Below, piece after piece: positions 7,389 to 29,739 of a DNA stretch of 64,000 bases. How positions within the stretch are numbered: position 1 is the first letter of the stretch; every line of letters starts with the position of its first letter. The notes beneath the pieces were generated by a model. It had not been told where the DNA came from, did no database searches, and saw only the letters and a list, made by a program, of their open reading frames with translations. Where the stretch lies: positions 1,216,001-1,280,000 of the forward strand of contig CAVXGK010000002.1 in assembly GCA_963761305.1 (NCBI GenBank). The letters are read 5' to 3'. The position numbers and the translations under genes are program-made. The stretch is from an uncultured Gemmatimonadaceae bacterium. Its GTDB lineage: Bacteria; Gemmatimonadota; Gemmatimonadetes; Gemmatimonadales; Gemmatimonadaceae.

Positions 7389-7993
7389 GTCATCTCACAA
7401 CGCGCCGGGCGTTGGTGGCGGTCGCGTGTGGTCTCGCGGTTGCGTGCGCGCCGATCAACAAAGTCATCGGCCCGACTCCGGCTCGCTCCTGGTCCGGCGT
7501 CCTGTCGCGCGCTCGAGGCCTGGCTGCGCGGGGCGAATTCGACCTCGCCGACAGCACCCTCGCCGACTTCGCCAAGCGATATCCCGCGAGCGAAGAGGCG
7601 TTGGAGACGTCATACTGGCGCGCGCTGTTCGCGCTCGATCCGTCCAATCGCGCGCAGTCGGTCACGGGCGCGATCGCGTCGCTCGATTCATACCTCGCCG
7701 ACACGCGGCCGCGCGAGCACGTGCTCGAAGCCACGACACTGCGCCGCGTCGCCGGGCAGCTCGACGCGCTCAACCGACTCGCGGCGAGCGCGATCGCTCA
7801 GGCAAAGGATGCGAACGCCGCGGCGGCGATCGCCCGCACGCTGTCGGACGCGCGCATCGAAACTCCGAAACCGGCGAGCGACAGCGCCTCGCAAGACGCC
7901 GAGATCCACCGGCTGAAGGACGAATTGGCGAAAGCGAACGCCGAGCTCGACCGAATTCGGCGCCGACTCACACCACCGCCGGCCGGTCGCTGA
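7385..7993 (+). CDS. Putative lipoprotein with TPR-like helices and a C-terminal coiled coil
   Basis: GTG start overlaps the kinase stop (GTGA). Lipobox-like LAVAC, FAKRYPAS, and coiled coil EIHRLKDELAKANAELDRIRRRL. Confidence 0.7.
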   Translation: MSHLTTRRALVAVACGLAVACAPINKVIGPTPARSWSGVLSRARGLAARGEFDLADSTLADFAKRYPASEEALETSYWRALFALDPSNRAQSVTGAIASLDSYLADTRPREHVLEATTLRRVAGQLDALNRLAASAIAQAKDANAAAAIARTLSDARIETPKPASDSASQDAEIHRLKDELAKANAELDRIRRRLTPPPAGR

Positions 7994-8000
7994 ACGGCGA

Positions 8001-10118
8001 CTAGCCGACTCGAAACAACTCCAGCGACCGCGCGTAGCGGTCGCCCAACACTCGTCGCATGCCGGCGTGCTCGGGCAGCTCGAGCGACGCGTCGTGCGAC
8101 AAGATCTCGGCGGCGGCCTCGCGTGCCCGCTCGCTGAGCGCCTCGTCGCGGAACGGGTCGGCGATGCGGAACGTGGGCACGCCGCTCTGTCGTTCACCGA
8201 ACAGGTCACCCATGCCGCGCAACCGCAGATCCTCGCGCGCGATCTCGAATCCGTCTTCCGTGTGCACGAACACCTGCAGCCGCTCGGCCACGTCAGGACT
8301 CACGTCGCCGAGGAGAATGCAGTACGACTCTTCCGCGCCGCGGCCGACTCGGCCGCGCAGCTGGTGCAGCTGCGAGAGCCCAAATCGTTCGGGGTGCTCG
8401 ACGAGCATCACCGTCGCGTTCGGAACGTCGATGCCGACCTCGATCACCGTCGTCGCGACGAGCAGGTCGATCGTGCCGTCGCGGAAGCGGCGCATGATGT
8501 CGTCGCGTTCGTCGCTCGGGACGCGCCCGTGCAGCAGCGCCACGCGACGGTTCGCGAACGCACCGGCGGCGAGCGCGTCGAACATCGTCGTCGCCGCCTT
8601 GAGGTCGGTCTTCTCCGACTCCTCGATGACCGGATAGACGATGTACGCCTGCCGCCCGAGCTCGAGCTGGCGGTCCACGAACTGAAGCACGCGATCGCGC
8701 GCCGATGCTTTTCGCAGTGCCGTCGTGATCGGGTGCCGTCCCGGCGGCGGTTCGTCGAGCATGCTCAGGTCGAGATCACCGTACATCGTGAGCGCCAGCG
8801 AACGCGGGATCGGCGTGGCCGACATGAGCAGCACGTCCGGCGCTTCGCCCTTGGCGCCGAGCGCCTTTCGCTGCTCGACGCCGAAGCGATGCTGTTCGTC
8901 GATCGCCGCGAACCCGAGATTCGAAAACGCCGTCGCTTCCTGCACCAGGGCATGAGTGCCGATCACGAGCACCGGCTCGTCGCTCGCCAGCCGCGCGGCG
9001 ACGGCCTTCCGCTGCTTTGCGGCGAGGCTCCCCGTGAGCAACAGCGGCTCGATGCCAAGCGGCGCGAGCAACCGGCCGATCGAGATCGCGTGCTGCTCCG
9101 CCAGCAGCTCCGTCGGCACCATGATGGCCGACTGTCGCCCGTTCTCGACCGCGAGCATCGCGGCGAAGAGCGCGACGATCGTCTTGCCGCTGCCGACGTC
9201 GCCTTGCAGCATCCGCTGCATGCGCCGGTCGCTGCACATGTCGGCGACGATCTCGCGAATCGCGCGCGTTTGCGCCCCGGTGAGCTGAAACGGCAGCGCT
9301 CCGCGCAGCGCGGTGGTCAACTTGCGCTTGTTGACGAACCGAATGCCGGACCGGTGCTGGCGCGCCAACTCCTTCGCCCGCTGGTGGAGGAGATGGACGA
9401 AGAACAGCTCCTCGAACGCGAGCCGCGATCGACCGCGCATCGCCTCGGCGAGCGACGTCGGGCGGTGCATCATGCGTAGCGCGTCGCCGATCGACGGCAC
9501 GTCCGCCGCCTTCACCACGCTTGGCGGCAGGTACTCGGTGACGAGCGGTAACAGCGCGTCGAGGTGCGCATCGATGATCGAGCGGATGACCTTGAACGAC
9601 AGGCCCTCCGTGGCTGGATACACGGAGAGCACGCGGCCCTTCGCCGTGCCCTGCTCGTCGTCGCCGAGGTTGACGTACTCGCGCGGCTGCAGCTGGCGGC
9701 CGTGGAAGAAGCGGACGTTGCCCGTCACCAGCAACACGTCGCCCTTGTCGATCGTGCGGTCGAGGAAGGGCTGGCCCGGCCATGAGACTTCTATCATGCC
9801 GGTGTCGTCGCGCAGTACGGCCTGGAAGATCCTCAACCCTTTGCGTGTCGGCAGCACGCCCTTCGAGATCACCGTGCCGACGACCGTCCCCTGCATTCCC
9901 GGCTCGAGGCTCTTGATCGCCGTGATCGTGCTGGCGTCCTCGTACCGATGCGGCACGTGGTAGAGGAGGTCGCCGGCCGTCGCGATGCCGAGCCGTCGCA
10001 GCGCCTCGGCGCGCGCGGGACCGACGCCCTTGAGATACATCACGGGTGTGTCGAGATACAGCCGATGCGCACCGCCGGACTTGGCGGATCGCCGCTCGCT
10101 CTCCGTGGGCGCGCTCAT
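8001..10118 (-). CDS. recG: ATP-dependent DNA helicase RecG
   Basis: LQGDVGSGKT, DEQHRFG, MSATPIPR, TTVIEVGIDVPNA and QLHQLRGRVGRG. Confidence 0.97.
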   Translation of the reverse strand: MSAPTESERRSAKSGGAHRLYLDTPVMYLKGVGPARAEALRRLGIATAGDLLYHVPHRYEDASTITAIKSLEPGMQGTVVGTVISKGVLPTRKGLRIFQAVLRDDTGMIEVSWPGQPFLDRTIDKGDVLLVTGNVRFFHGRQLQPREYVNLGDDEQGTAKGRVLSVYPATEGLSFKVIRSIIDAHLDALLPLVTEYLPPSVVKAADVPSIGDALRMMHRPTSLAEAMRGRSRLAFEELFFVHLLHQRAKELARQHRSGIRFVNKRKLTTALRGALPFQLTGAQTRAIREIVADMCSDRRMQRMLQGDVGSGKTIVALFAAMLAVENGRQSAIMVPTELLAEQHAISIGRLLAPLGIEPLLLTGSLAAKQRKAVAARLASDEPVLVIGTHALVQEATAFSNLGFAAIDEQHRFGVEQRKALGAKGEAPDVLLMSATPIPRSLALTMYGDLDLSMLDEPPPGRHPITTALRKASARDRVLQFVDRQLELGRQAYIVYPVIEESEKTDLKAATTMFDALAAGAFANRRVALLHGRVPSDERDDIMRRFRDGTIDLLVATTVIEVGIDVPNATVMLVEHPERFGLSQLHQLRGRVGRGAEESYCILLGDVSPDVAERLQVFVHTEDGFEIAREDLRLRGMGDLFGERQSGVPTFRIADPFRDEALSERAREAAAEILSHDASLELPEHAGMRRVLGDRYARSLELFRVG

Positions 10119-10119
10119 T

Positions 10120-10162
10120 CGATGCTCACGCGATGCTCACGCGATGCTCACGCGATGCTCAC
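10120..10162. repeat. 11-bp tandem repeat (CGATGCTCACG) x ~4 filling the ftsY-recG gap
   Basis: Read directly. On the minus strand it is GTGAGCATCGC x3 + GTGAGCATCGA. Confidence 0.95.
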
Positions 10163-11091
10163 TCGCCGCTCAGGAGCTCCCGGGAAAATGCCGCGGCGTC
10201 GAAAGGTTCGAGATCGCCGACAGCTTCGCCCACGCCGATGAACTTGACCGGCGCGTCGATGGCCTCGTGCACGGCGATCACGACGCCGCCGCGCGCGGTG
10301 CCGTCCAGCTTCGTCACGACGAGCCCGGACACCGGGACGGCGGCCGCGAAGATCTTCGCCTGCTGCACGGCGTTCTGGCCGATCGTGCCGTCGAGGACGA
10401 GCAGCGTTTCGTGCGGCGCGCCGGGCAGCCTCTTCGTGACGACGCGCGCGACCTTGCGCAGCTCCTCCATCAAGCTGTCGCTGGTGTGAAGTCGGCCCGC
10501 AGTATCGACGATGAGTACATCCGCGCCGCGTGCCACGGCCGAATCGATCGCGTCGAATGCCACGGCGGCCGGATCAGCGCCCGCCTTCGCGCCGACGAAC
10601 ATGGAGCCGGTGCGATCGGCCCACACACGCAGTTGATCGATCGCGCCGGCGCGAAACGTGTCGCCGGCGGCGAGCATCACCTTGCTCCCGCCGCGCCGCA
10701 ACCGATCGGCGAGCTTGCCGATGAACGTCGTCTTTCCCGCCCCGTTCACGCCGACCACGAGAATCACCGTCGGAGCGGACGGTGCAAACCGAAGCGCCGG
10801 ATCGCTGTTGCCGGCGCGCAACGCGCCCTCGACGCCGTGCGCCAAAATGTCGAGAAACTGGTCTTGGGTCTTCACGCCGCCGCGCTTGGCGCGCTGCTCG
10901 ACGTCTTCCACCAGCCGCAACGTCACCGGCACGCCGAAGTCGGACTCCAGCAGGAGCTGCTCGAGATTCTCCAGCGACGCCGTCGACACGCCGCCGCGGA
11001 TGAACACGCCCGCGTCCATCAGCGCGACGTCCTTGATGCGCTGCCAGAGCGAACGCTTGGGTACGTCTCCAGCCTTACGTAAGAGTCTCAT
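10159..11091 (-). CDS. ftsY: Signal recognition particle receptor FtsY (NG domain only)
   Basis: GVNGAGKTT, DTFRAGA, DTAGR, DGTIGQN and TKLDGTARGG. Start trimmed to ATG 11091. Confidence 0.96.
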   Translation of the reverse strand: MRLLRKAGDVPKRSLWQRIKDVALMDAGVFIRGGVSTASLENLEQLLLESDFGVPVTLRLVEDVEQRAKRGGVKTQDQFLDILAHGVEGALRAGNSDPALRFAPSAPTVILVVGVNGAGKTTFIGKLADRLRRGGSKVMLAAGDTFRAGAIDQLRVWADRTGSMFVGAKAGADPAAVAFDAIDSAVARGADVLIVDTAGRLHTSDSLMEELRKVARVVTKRLPGAPHETLLVLDGTIGQNAVQQAKIFAAAVPVSGLVVTKLDGTARGGVVIAVHEAIDAPVKFIGVGEAVGDLEPFDAAAFSRELLSGE

Positions 11092-11104
11092 GATCCAAGA
11101 GTGA

Positions 11105-12910
11105 TCAACGCATGCCGCGGCGGCGGCGAAGTACCCATTCGGCGCACAACACCAATATCGCCAACGCGTAGGCCCAGCCGGCCCCGCGAATGCGGGGCGC
11201 GGCATCAGCCGACAAAGTACCGCTCGTGCGGTCGTTCGCGGTCACGGTCGGCGCGCGCGGAATCCATTCGCGCGACGGATTCACCGGCAGCAGCGCCGAC
11301 CCGCCGCGCGTCGTGACGTCGTACACGCCGGCCTCGAGCGCCGGCGTCTCCACCACAGTCACACCGGGCGGATACCGGAGCGTCAGCGTATCGCCGCGCG
11401 TCGTGCCTCGGCGTTGCACGACGACCTTGACGAGAGAATCGCCGGCCGACCCGCGCCGCCAGCGCACGGGATCGCCCGCTCGCACGACGCGCTCGTCCGG
11501 CACTGCCGCACGGTGATCTGCCCGTTCGGCGGCGAGCCAATCGAACACGCTGCCCCAGAACGCCGTGAACGCGTCGCCGGCCACGCCGCCGCGGAATTTC
11601 CAACGCCACACGCCCGACGCGGCGATGACCGCGACGCGCCGAGGCTCCTCCATGCCGACGACGAGCGGCTTGCGCTCGTCTCCGCGTCCGCGCCGCGCCT
11701 CGACGCCGATCCACGTGCCCTTGGGAACGTCGGCCCCCACGCCCACGGGCGGCAGGCTGTCCCACACCACACCGGACAGCGCCGGCGCGAGCGGCGACAA
11801 CGGCGCCGCCGACGGATACCATTCGCCTTCGGTTCCGGTCGTCACCACCAGAGCCAGCGGGCCGACCGTGGCGGCGCGCGGCGGACCGAATATCGATGTG
11901 TCGCCGTGAATGATCGCCACCGGCGCGTCGTGCAACGCCTGCCGAACGTCCGCTTCCGACGCCGGCGCGAGCGACCCTTCCGAGCGCCATTCCCCGGGGG
12001 CGACGCGGAAGAATCCGCGCGTGGGAATCCCCAGCGATCCGCGCAGCACGGCCAGCGCGTAGCGCGCGTCGAAGTCCGGCGACGTGGACACGAACACCGC
12101 GCTGGCGGCGCGCGACAGGTCCACGGCCACGTTCAACGTGTCGTCACTGTGGTTGGAATCACCGGGCGACGTCACCACGGCTCGCAGCAGCGCCGACCCG
12201 CTCGCGCCGTCGAGCTTCGTCTTGACCGAAATCGTTCGTTCGGCGAACGGCGCCATCGAGTCCACGGGCGTGGTCGCGATCGGCCGATCGTTGAGGGCGA
12301 GCGACAGCGAACTCGGCCCCGCCCCGGCGCCCCCCGCGGCGACCGTGACCCGAACGTCGAGCGTGTCGCCGCTCACCACGGCGCGCGGCGCGTCGATCGA
12401 GACGACGCCGAGATCACGCTTCGGGGGATGCTTGATCACCACGAGCCGCGATCCCGCCGGAAGCGAGGTGAGCGCGTCCGGATCGTCCACCTCACCGTCG
12501 GTGATGACGAGCAGGGGGTGGCCCGCGCCGAGCGCGCGCTCGACCACCGGCCGCAATCGCGTCGTGGGATCCGACGGCGCCTTGCCCGTGTCGCCGCGCC
12601 GGATCGAATCGCCGAACACGAACGTGCTGTCGGCCCTGGCGCGCCGCAGTGTATCGCGGGCCGCACGCCACGTCGCCGAATCGTCGCGCACCATGCTCGA
12701 CGAAACGTCGAGCGCCGCCCATGCGGCCGCCGGCTCGGGAAAGCCGAGCGGTGCGTCGAGCAGCAAGGCGACGACGAGCGCGATAACCGCCGCCCGCAGA
12801 AGTGCCGCGGCCACGGTGAACGGGCCCCCCGCGGCGCGCAGATCGCGGACGCCGTACTGAACAAGCGCCACGACGACACCAGCGCCGATCGCGATCAGCC
12901 AGGCTGACAT
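11105..12910 (-). CDS. Membrane-anchored vWA-like protein with an Ig/CARDB-like domain
   Basis: N-terminal TM helices, MIDAS-like LDVSSSM and ITDG, and a C-terminal TM followed by EWVLRRRRG. Confidence 0.65.
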   Translation of the reverse strand: MSAWLIAIGAGVVVALVQYGVRDLRAAGGPFTVAAALLRAAVIALVVALLLDAPLGFPEPAAAWAALDVSSSMVRDDSATWRAARDTLRRARADSTFVFGDSIRRGDTGKAPSDPTTRLRPVVERALGAGHPLLVITDGEVDDPDALTSLPAGSRLVVIKHPPKRDLGVVSIDAPRAVVSGDTLDVRVTVAAGGAGAGPSSLSLALNDRPIATTPVDSMAPFAERTISVKTKLDGASGSALLRAVVTSPGDSNHSDDTLNVAVDLSRAASAVFVSTSPDFDARYALAVLRGSLGIPTRGFFRVAPGEWRSEGSLAPASEADVRQALHDAPVAIIHGDTSIFGPPRAATVGPLALVVTTGTEGEWYPSAAPLSPLAPALSGVVWDSLPPVGVGADVPKGTWIGVEARRGRGDERKPLVVGMEEPRRVAVIAASGVWRWKFRGGVAGDAFTAFWGSVFDWLAAERADHRAAVPDERVVRAGDPVRWRRGSAGDSLVKVVVQRRGTTRGDTLTLRYPPGVTVVETPALEAGVYDVTTRGGSALLPVNPSREWIPRAPTVTANDRTSGTLSADAAPRIRGAGWAYALAILVLCAEWVLRRRRGMR

Positions 12911-13030
12911 TCGGCGAAAGCTAACGGTCGACGTCCGCCGGCCGGTCCGAATCGACCGGGCGGAAAAACGAATCGCGCCGGCCGAAGCCAGCGCGACGAA
13001 GGGACAAATGTGTTCGGGTCAGCCGTCGGC

Positions 13031-14233
13031 TCAGTCCATTTGCCGGCGGATGAACGTCGGGATCTCCATGTCGGTGACGTCCTGCGGAGCCCTCTCGCTG
13101 AGCGAGGACCGGGCCGAGCGGGTGGCATCGGCGGAACGGTTGGCCGTGCCGGTCCCGCCCGAGCCGGCCACACGGGTGGGCCGCGTCTGGGGGAACTGAA
13201 TGACGGGAGAACCAGTGGTCTTGGTGTTGGTCTGAACGAGAGAATCCACGGCGCGAGCAGTGCCCATGTTGAGCGCGCGATCGAACCCGGTCGCGATGAC
13301 CGTGACACGGATCTCGCCCTGCATGGCCGGTTCGTGGACCGCGCCGAAAATGATTTCGGCGTCGTCCCCGACAGCGTCGTGGATGATCTCGTTGATCTGG
13401 TGCACTTCGCCGAGCGTGAGGTCTGCGCCGCCCGTGATGTTCACGAGAACGCCGGTGGCGCCGGAGACGCTCACGTTGTCGAGGAGCGGGGAGCTGATGG
13501 CCTGCTGCGCCGCCTCCATCGCGCGATTCTCACCGCGGCCGATGCCCGTGCCCATGAGGGCCGAGCCGCCCGCGTGCATGACCGTCCGCACGTCCGCAAA
13601 GTCGACGTTCACCAAGCCGGTGACGCTGATCAGCGAGGAGATGCCCTGGGTCGCGTGGAGCAGCACTTCGTCGGCTTTCTTGAGGGCGTCCTGGAACGGG
13701 ATGCCCTTTCCGACCACCGCCAGTAACCGTTCATTCGGCACGACGATCATCGTGTCGACGTTCTTGCGCATGTCGTTGATGCCCTGTTCGGCTTGCCGCA
13801 TTCGCTTGCGTCCCTCGAACAGGAACGGCTTGGTGACGATGCCGACGGTCAGCGAGCCGACTTCGCGGGCCAGCTCGGCGATGACCGGTGCGGCCCCGGT
13901 TCCGGTGCCGCCGCCCATGCCGCAGGTGATGAAGACCAGGTCAGCGCCGGTGAGCGCACGGGCCACCTCGTCGCGGTTTTCCTCGATTGCCTGGCGGCCG
14001 ATCTCCGGCCGCGCTCCGGCGCCAAGTCCCCGCGTGAGCTTTTTGCCGATTTGGACTTTGACGTCCGACTTGGACGACAGGAGCGCCTGCGCGTCCGTGT
14101 TCACCGAGATGAACTCGACGCCCTCGAGGTGCTCGTCGATCATCCGGTTGACGGCGTTGCCGCCGCCGCCGCCGACGCCGACGACCTTCATCCGGGCGTT
14201 CTGGGTCGCGCTCTCTTCGAACTCGAAGATCAT
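13031..14233 (-). CDS. ftsZ: Cell division protein FtsZ
   Basis: [25 protein letters not shown] and C-terminal peptide EIPTFIRRQ. Confidence 0.98.
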
Positions 14234-14528
14234 TGCGAACGGTCCGTACGTCGAATGGTGTGGACGAGAGGACTCAAGGAAGGAACGACAGAACCATCAA
14301 CACCAGGAGCGCAGCGGCGCGACTCATCCGGGCCCTCAAGCGCTCGCGGAATATAATGCTTTCTGCCGTTCCGACTACCCCTTTTGACGACAGCCGTGCG
14401 AATTCTTCACGAAGAATGGCATGCTGACTTTTCCACAACCGTGACGTCCGTGACACAAATTTGATGCTGCGCGTCGCCGAGCGACGGTCCACCTCGCTAA
14501 CCCATTTCTCGAATACTGATGCCAGTTC

Positions 14529-15782
14529 CTAGAAAAAATCCTGGAGCCAGAACTTGAGCTTGGCGGTGATCCCCTCCATGCCTTTCCCGATCGGCGTCCG
14601 GCGGGCGCTGGTCACGGCACCGAGCGCGATTCGGTTGGCGCCGTACTGGGCGAGCCCCACCACCGTCGCGAATCGCGGCCCGTCCACGGTTTCGACCAAC
14701 CCGCCCACGTTCTGCGTCGGCACCCCGACGCGCGCCCCGGTCCCGAATACCTCGCTCGCCAGCTCGGCGCTCCCCGGCATGGTCGCACCGCCCCCGGTGA
14801 GCACGACCCCGGCGCTCAACTGTCCGGCAAATCCCGCCGACGCGATTTCGCGCTGCACGAGGTCGAAGACCTCGTCCATTCGCTGGTGGATGATGTGCGC
14901 CAAGAGCTCCCGCGGGACATGGCGCTCGCCTTGGGCCGCCGTGCTCGGCAGTTGGATGACGTCCCCCGGATCCACCATCGGCTCGTACGCGCATCCGAAC
15001 CGTTCCTTCAGCCGCTCGGCGTCGGCCTGGGTCACGCCAAGTCCGTGCACGATGTCTCGCGTCACGTTTTTGCCGCCGAAACGGACGGTCCCCAAATGAC
15101 GGATCTTGCCCTCGTGAAAGATCGCGAGCTCGGTCGTGCTCGCGCCCATCGCGACGTGGGCGACGCCGAGCTCCTTTTCGTCCTCCGTGAGGACGGCGAG
15201 CGCCGCGGCCAAAGGTTCGAGCACGAGCTCCCGCAGCTTGTAGCCCGCCCGTTCGATGGACCGGCGCAGGTGGATCGGCGGCGAGTTGCCGATCGTCACC
15301 AGGTACATCTCGGTTTCGAGGCGCGTGCCGGTCATCCCGATCGGATCGCGGATGCCCGCGTTCCGGTCCACCGTGTACTCCTGCGGGATGGCGTGTAGCA
15401 GCTGACGGTCGGGTGGAATCGCCTGGGCACGCGCCACCTCGTTCACACGCTCCACGTCCGACGCCGTGATCTCGTCGTGGCTGATCGCCACGATGCCCTT
15501 GCTCGTCATGGCGTGGGCATGCTCGCCGGCGATGCCGCAGAAGAGGTCCTCGACGCTGAGCCCGGCCATCCGCTCGGCGTCCTCGACCGCCTTCTTGATC
15601 GAGGTCGTCGTCTCCTCGATGTCGGACACGACCCCTTGGTGCAGTCCGGTCGTCCGCGACTGGCCGACCCCCAGCACCTTGATCGACGGATGCTTGGGGA
15701 GATCGCCATCCACTTCGGCGATGATGGCCGTGGTTTTGGCCGACCCGATGTCGAGTCCCGCGACGAGGCGTTCTGGATTCAT
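14529..15782 (-). CDS. ftsA: Cell division protein FtsA
   Basis: LDIGSAK, PIGMTGTRLE, GVVLTGGG, FATVVGL and amphipathic C-terminus LKFWLQDFF. Confidence 0.96.
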   Translation of the reverse strand: MNPERLVAGLDIGSAKTTAIIAEVDGDLPKHPSIKVLGVGQSRTTGLHQGVVSDIEETTTSIKKAVEDAERMAGLSVEDLFCGIAGEHAHAMTSKGIVAISHDEITASDVERVNEVARAQAIPPDRQLLHAIPQEYTVDRNAGIRDPIGMTGTRLETEMYLVTIGNSPPIHLRRSIERAGYKLRELVLEPLAAALAVLTEDEKELGVAHVAMGASTTELAIFHEGKIRHLGTVRFGGKNVTRDIVHGLGVTQADAERLKERFGCAYEPMVDPGDVIQLPSTAAQGERHVPRELLAHIIHQRMDEVFDLVQREIASAGFAGQLSAGVVLTGGGATMPGSAELASEVFGTGARVGVPTQNVGGLVETVDGPRFATVVGLAQYGANRIALGAVTSARRTPIGKGMEGITAKLKFWLQDFF

Positions 15783-29359: not shown

Positions 29360-29739
29360 CGCCGCCGAACGACTAAACGTCATCGCCGGACGACTAAACG
29401 GCATCGCCGAAACGACGAACCGCATCGCCGAAACGACGAACCGCAGTCGCCGACTGACGAAGCCGCATTGCCGACTGACGAAGCAGCATCGCCGACCGAC
29501 GAATCCTCATCGTCGGAGCGATGAACCGCATCGCCGAACGACTACACGTCATCGCCGAAACGACGAATCGCATCGTCGAACCGATGAACCGAATCGCCAA
29601 AACGAGGAACCTTAGTCGCCGAACGACGAAGCCGGATTGCCGACTTACGAAGCCGCAACGCCGACGGACGAATCCTCATTGTCGGAACGATGAACCGCAT
29701 CGCCGACCGACGAATCCTCGTCGCCGAAGGACAAAACAA
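29360..29739. repeat. Degenerate 21-bp tandem array, 18 units, consensus ~CATCGCCGAAACGACGAACCG, with a 169-bp higher-order period
   Basis: Parsed unit by unit: 16 units of 21 bp and two of 22 bp (29444 and 29613), which lie exactly 8 units apart. Confidence 0.92.

Follow-up and report, generated by a model that had tools for sequence, protein, structure and literature searches.

In an uncultured soil bacterium of the Gemmatimonadaceae, the junction from ftsY to recG holds an 11-nt tandem repeat that can be read as four very short ORFs, each overlapping the next. The locus raises the question of whether the repeat passes ribosomes from ftsY to recG, and whether the number of units serves to set RecG output. 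An initial annotation of the window (the whole 64,000-nt stretch of DNA analysed, from contig CAVXGK010000002.1) had offered two options, a ribosome relay whose copy number could tune RecG and a neutral duplication of the junction.

Geometry of the ftsY-recG junction

On the minus strand, ftsY ends GAG-TGA at 10159 and is followed by four 15-nt ORFs and then by recG, all of these being joined by five consecutive 4-nt stop/start overlaps (-4 spacing). The features, in the order of transcription, are:

10159..11091, minus strand: ftsY (SRP receptor), 310 aa, its TGA shared with the start of the first mini-ORF (NCBIfam TIGR00064)
10120..10162, minus strand: 11-nt tandem repeat, 3.9 copies with 100% matches (TRF, period 11), the number varying among relatives
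10148..10162, minus strand: mini-ORF 1, GTG start, VSIA* (read MSIA)
10137..10151, minus strand: mini-ORF 2, GTG start, MSIA, in the same frame as recG and closed by an in-frame TGA
10126..10140, minus strand: mini-ORF 3, GTG start, MSIA
10115..10129, minus strand: mini-ORF 4, GTG start, MSIE, its TGA overlapping the recG ATG (10118)
8001..10118, minus strand: recG helicase, 705 aa, with a weak SD (NCBIfam NF008168)

The annotated geometry, three MSIA frames and one MSIE frame with five 4-nt overlaps, was found to be exact by sequence, ORFs and NCBIfam assignments. The latter were clear for both ftsY (317 bits against a cutoff of 260.7) and recG (863 bits against 718), and the recG start at 10118 is the sole ATG, GTG or TTG in the recG frame from the last in-frame stop to the conserved LDTP block. 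Pairing of the anti-SD before recG was calculated at -4.2 kcal/mol; the median was -5.2 for starts in direct overlaps and -3.5 for internal codons taken as controls, as scored with a generic anti-SD whose last base differs from the 16S end of the source genome; this agrees with the earlier statement that recG has no strong SD. A second role for RTGAG, as an SD serving the unit that follows, was not supported, its pairing being no better than that of control codons. Note that a unit length of 2 mod 3 follows from the definition of such a chain and carries no evidential weight. Perfect period-11 runs as long as the ftsY-recG array occur only twice in the 5.2-Mb source genome (66% GC), both times as gene-junction relays. 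The 601-aa gene upstream of ftsY (window 11105-12910, minus strand) had no NCBIfam match; its Atlas clusters are Gemmatimonadota-specific, one being auto-named glutamine-amidotransferase-like.

Copy number and recurrence at the junction

Five soil metagenome runs (four plus one) were searched as contigs, and those contigs that carry the array or shorter alleles come from two studies. Contigs of 41 nt identical to the ftsY-recG array were present in runs X2 and X3, and one X3 contig links 30 nt of the array to ftsY. A contig from X6 crosses the junction minus 11 nt, with 13 other differences, and corresponds to 3 units. In X1 and X2, contigs have loose ends that match window positions 10173-10186 and 10100-10112 and skip 33 nt, from which we infer 1-unit alleles; sample X2 would then hold both a 1-unit form and a form of at least 4 units. 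The copy-number variation that the initial annotation had proposed to look for among strains is thus present in soil contigs as 3 and 4 units and probably as 1. That the repeat was made by the assembly, as had also been considered, is next to impossible given array-identical contigs in independent samples, one of them joined to ftsY, and the 1- and 3-unit alleles in others. The five closest congeners (L002-L006; RecG 88-92% identical) have a plain GTGA overlap of ftsY and recG with no repeat. Based on the soil alleles and on this direct overlap in the congeners, the array is a recent micro-VNTR within an ancestrally overlapping junction.

To place the array among relatives, 110 ftsY-recG loci were reduced to 85 distinct junctions, leaving out 11 duplicates, 3 loci without ftsY and 11 without the anchor motif. 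Ten of these last 11 were scored separately and gave 9 direct overlaps and 1 TAG; in one anchor-less locus (L007, G022) recG is apparently frameshifted, which may be an assembly error. The 68 distinct junctions at which ftsY ends RTGA comprise 46 direct overlaps, 17 complete relays, 2 relays that nearly land, at 0 or 2 nt from where recG starts, 2 chains that break and 1 junction that is out of phase. In 14/85 junctions ftsY ends TAA or TAG without a -4 overlap, so that in the family as a whole recG does not depend on strict coupling.

A tree was built from 83 rows (2 direct-overlap rows omitted). Its 18 relay rows require 13 changes, at least 11 of them forced by well-supported branches, and on this tree ftsY-recG relays arose independently at least 11 times. 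Set against a single uncoupling insertion this gives p=0.006, a rough value that assumes insertions of 1 mod 3 and 2 mod 3 to arise equally often and that overstates the significance because the genomes are related. The inserts that do not keep the chain are those of L026, L121 and L106. The relay steps measure 8 nt (three), 11 nt (23), 14 nt (two), 20 nt (two), 59 nt and 113 nt, and the 19 ftsY-recG relays encode unrelated peptides, which rules out a conserved stalling or leader peptide. In its tail, ftsY has the word TGAGC recurring at an 11-nt interval, which is a plausible slippage template, and it is exactly this tail that is repeated in L018. Hairpin-driven expansion was examined as an alternative origin and rejected: the ftsY-recG array can form a fold with itself, yet its unit is only at the 13th percentile of background units, 13% of which are as stable, and the 15 units that were scored (2 of them from the source genome, 13 from loci elsewhere) range widely, between 2% and 96%. 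Two junctions carry inserts that look palindromic and REP-like by eye, one of 113 nt that keeps the relay phase (L011) and one that breaks the chain and places AGG before the recG ATG (L026).

Relays at other junctions

Using our own gene caller, we found 4282 genes in the source genome, 1297 of which end RTGA. Among these, 662 overlap the next gene directly, 64 are relayed through 1 mini-ORF, 8 through 2, 2 through 4 and 1 through 8. The longest, with eight 11-nt units, leads from the gene of an ECF sigma factor into that of a Ser/Thr kinase (G000:C2:729692-729783, plus strand; L031), and its unit is the same as, or 1 nt off, the ftsY-recG unit; in congeners this junction has a 12-nt in-frame spacer, which would be a local precursor one base longer, or one 11-nt step. 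A 4x14-nt relay joins an NYN-domain gene to a methylpurine glycosylase gene (MPG; G000:C2:2441419, minus strand; L032), and four of five congeners are also relayed there, by 14+14, 14+14, 23+5 and 23 nt. Apparent frameshifts were seen in the NYN gene of L431 (G024) and the kinase gene of L427 (G019), and may be assembly errors.

The phase of short inserts was then compared by stop codon. Close gene pairs with an RTGA downstream start were, after an RTGA stop, in relay phase in 49 cases and out of phase in 8; after a TAA/TAG stop the counts were 32 and 35. Genes ending CTGA or TTGA lean toward relay phase too (38 versus 14), and this lean may come from CTG/TTG starts or from a neutral frameshift-tail effect. 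The genome-wide phase bias is partly neutral, NTG-A being the commonest off-frame stop in GC-rich frames, and because CTGA/TTGA stops share the bias, the test is only suggestive of selection for coupling.

Relays were also sought across the family. Of 201 genomes, 63 had four RTGA words spaced at period 11, 33 at period 10, 78 at period 14 and 36 at period 8, many of the period-14 matches being 7-mer arrays. Scoring was based on 30 loci listed per period, with the period-14 set split into true 14 (19) and 7-mers (11). Among the loci listed, complete gene-to-gene relays numbered 11/30 for period 11, 5/19 for true 14, 3/30 for period 8, 1/30 for period 10 and 1/11 for 7-mers; pooled, periods 8, 11 and 14 gave 19/79 and periods 7 and 10 gave 2/41. 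Period 11 is thus not the unique relay period. In another genus, 32 junctions of 7 gene pairs comprised 13 direct overlaps, 13 relays, 2 broken chains and 4 non-TGA stops, with 7/13 relays being preselected loci and the unselected ones giving 6 landing versus 2 broken; L336 and L354 have the inserts that do not keep the chain. The ftsE-ftsX junction was relayed in 5/5 genomes of this genus by four architectures (3x11, 2x11, 26+11+8, 23 and 3x11 nt). In a single genome (G126), housekeeping junctions hold five 3x11-nt relays, all diverged, and one 4x14-nt relay (L246, L309, L311, L312, L313, L366), lying upstream of ruvX, ftsX, a pyrB-like gene, anmK and an M20 peptidase gene; at four of these, congeners are mostly direct.

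Two arguments from such arrays were discarded. Diverged spacers with an intact RTGA are circular as proof of selection, the search having demanded RTGA, and some such arrays being located in promoter-like regions; that three units stop all frames reflects only the search minimum of three. An all-prokaryote scan gave at least 121 period-11 arrays, of which 80 were examined and 4 flagged. Only 3/80 were credible gene-to-gene relays (in an actinobacterium, a Methylorubrum and a gammaproteobacterium, with gene identities by eye), so that RTGA words in a periodic array do not, in most cases, make a relay.

Tandem repeats of other kinds were observed as well. Perfect period-8 arrays number 32 in the source genome and are built from six related units, with none inside called genes and 15 between convergent genes; 7- and 13-mer tandem families are present too. 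A degenerate 21-nt array of about 18 copies, with a higher-order 169-nt period, lies at window 29363-29737, upstream of rsmH/mraW and the dcw cluster and adjoining a strong inverted repeat; further 21-nt families are scattered over the genome. Diverged period-11 RTGA arrays of 3-9 units were found at six loci in long intergenic regions without an upstream gene (G000:C1:1123640-1123676 and G000:C2:2828987-2829023, minus strand; also L303, L318, L319 and L321). We take these to resemble putative OmpR/PhoB-type direct-repeat boxes.

Readings of the array and known systems

The geometry, the empty site in kin, the copy-number variation, the repeated origins, the non-conserved peptides and the deficit of out-of-phase inserts are established, and the array is probably a functioning but non-adaptive ribosome relay that persists because each 11-nt copy rebuilds the overlap. 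Slipped-strand duplication of junction DNA would yield units of any length. Duplications across RTGA of 0 mod 3 would extend the frame and those of 2 mod 3 would create a relay, both being tolerated, while those of 1 mod 3 would uncouple the genes and be purged by selection; the counts fit removal of this last class. Each mini-ORF would be translated by termination-reinitiation, with ribosomes leaving ftsY passed along to recG, the peptides would be by-products of four throw-away mini-ORFs, and added units would probably cost some RecG output, incidentally rather than by design. Termination-reinitiation is established at NTGA-type overlaps (PMC6728339, in part) and re-initiation at an AUGA overlap has been demonstrated after one uORF (PMC11260477, in part); ribosomes likely re-initiate serially along the chain. 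The two options of the initial annotation thus combine as neutral origin and selective filter. The relay is kept, its geometry being exact and the comparative data favouring coupling held by selection; local duplication is kept as the origin, whereas purely neutral persistence is disfavored by the out-of-phase deficit and by chains retained after sequence change.

A broader version, in which tetrapeptide-ORF chains form a general unannotated operon layer in Gemmatimonadota and other GC-rich bacteria, with highly efficient serial re-initiation and with chain length attenuating the dosage of the downstream gene in a digital, heritable and reversible way at numerous housekeeping junctions, we consider unlikely. 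It is quite unlikely that the array is an inert spacer whose mini-ORFs are barely translated, the chain being a geometric by-product of overlap duplication and recG being initiated either de novo, at its weak SD, or by ribosomes that slide or unfold RNA across the 40-nt gap. Coupling at about +40 nt is still present, 3- to 10-fold weaker (PMC12548453, in part), the GUGA of the preceding unit pairs weakly with the anti-SD (-4.2), and SD share and coupling vary by gene pair, one E. coli overlap being initiated de novo (PMC6728339, in part). A spacer, however, leaves the deficit of out-of-phase inserts unexplained, and chains still reach the start after both sequence and architecture have changed, as at ftsE-ftsX and NYN-MPG.

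Copy number as an adaptive tuning knob, in which each hand-over loses a fraction of ribosomes and the number of units is selected to vary so that RecG can be adjusted against FtsY in reversible steps, is decidedly unlikely. Alleles of 1, 3 and 4 units do exist, with 1- and at least 4-unit forms in one sample, the G126 relays fall at housekeeping junctions, and for Mtb fpg a modest correlation links mRNA level to the length of an upstream VNTR (PMC2734929, in part). The proposed tuning of RecG is nevertheless not supported: the five closest congeners lack the repeat, the same layout is found at many unrelated junctions that share no functional theme, neither the peptides nor the unit sequences are conserved, and short tandem repeats of various periods are dispersed so abundantly in the family that supply alone explains the variation.

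A mobile micro-element, a tiny MIRU-like unit copied among junctions by recombination or conversion, is an idea about origin that is compatible with a relay and that we regard as very unlikely. The same or a 1-nt-different unit occurs in the ECF-sigma/kinase array and in relays of G161 and G106, and GCATC-N-C follows 3/1297 RTGA stops versus about 0.7 expected; the source genome has two arrays and one similar single unit of this type. Against this, the ECF locus has its local 12-nt precursor in congeners, two tandem units occur in only 2/301 family genomes, other arrays copy their own flanks, and there appear to be no inverted ends. Eleven-bp direct repeats are a motif class of OmpR/PhoB-type regulators, and the diverged intergenic arrays would suit a DNA-level operator, but this is extremely unlikely for ftsY-recG units that are identical, variable in number, missing in kin and placed precisely at the stop and start codons, with no sigma-70-like promoter found in window 7900-14600.

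Whether coupling works by re-initiation of the same ribosome or by RNA unfolding is still debated (PMC12548453, in part). Computed from the 3- to 10-fold loss at about +40 nt in that review, four extra steps would outdo a plain 40-nt spacer only if each were more than about 0.56-0.76 efficient, and the natural series of 0, 1, 3, 4 and 8 identical hand-overs would give the per-step efficiency directly. By implication, GC-rich operons would contain many constrained coupling bridges that annotation misses and that pass for short 'intergenic' spacers; taken alone, the ftsY-recG array is a curiosity.

The mycobacterial MIRU, or MIRU-VNTR, reportedly goes back to Supply et al. 1997. MIRUs insert at start codons, where the MIRU ORF couples at -4 and expression is probably spared (PMC12548453, in part), and they are units of 40-100 bp at about 41 loci with tetranucleotide direct repeats and copy polymorphism (PMC3184786 and PMC2734929, in part). 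The array resembles them as an intra-operon unit whose ORF overlaps its neighbours at -4, in having empty sites (L002-L006) as well as filled ones with tetranucleotide direct repeat ends (here GTGA/ATGA), in its copy-number polymorphism (1, inferred, 3 and at least 4 units) and in the proposed sparing of downstream expression. It differs in its unit of 11 bp, or four codons, in the 2-3 loci with this unit compared to one sequence family at some 40-50 loci, in its apparent lack of inverted ends, in units that are mostly made locally and differ between loci, and in its Gemmatimonadota host. MIRUs have imperfect inverted repeats, terminal and internal, that are GC-rich; the array can fold on itself, as stably as 13% of background units do, but 11 nt are too short for TIRs. 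The array works like a MIRU but fails the MIRU definition. Compared to termination-reinitiation at plain NTGA overlaps (PMC6728339 and PMC12548453, in part), the same -4 signal is present at all five junctions but with five serial hand-overs via four-codon ORFs. In the uPPE2-PPE2 relay, a short out-of-frame ORF likewise brings ribosomes to an SD-less gene through AUGA, but that ORF is a lone leader uORF, equipped with its own SD and controlled by a riboswitch, rather than an intergenic repeat (PMC11260477, in part). In the openly readable literature we found no serial micro-repeat relays beyond MIRUs and no test of them. MIRU-type coupling was known already; what is added here is the minimal unit, its alleles in independent samples, and the family-wide phase controls.
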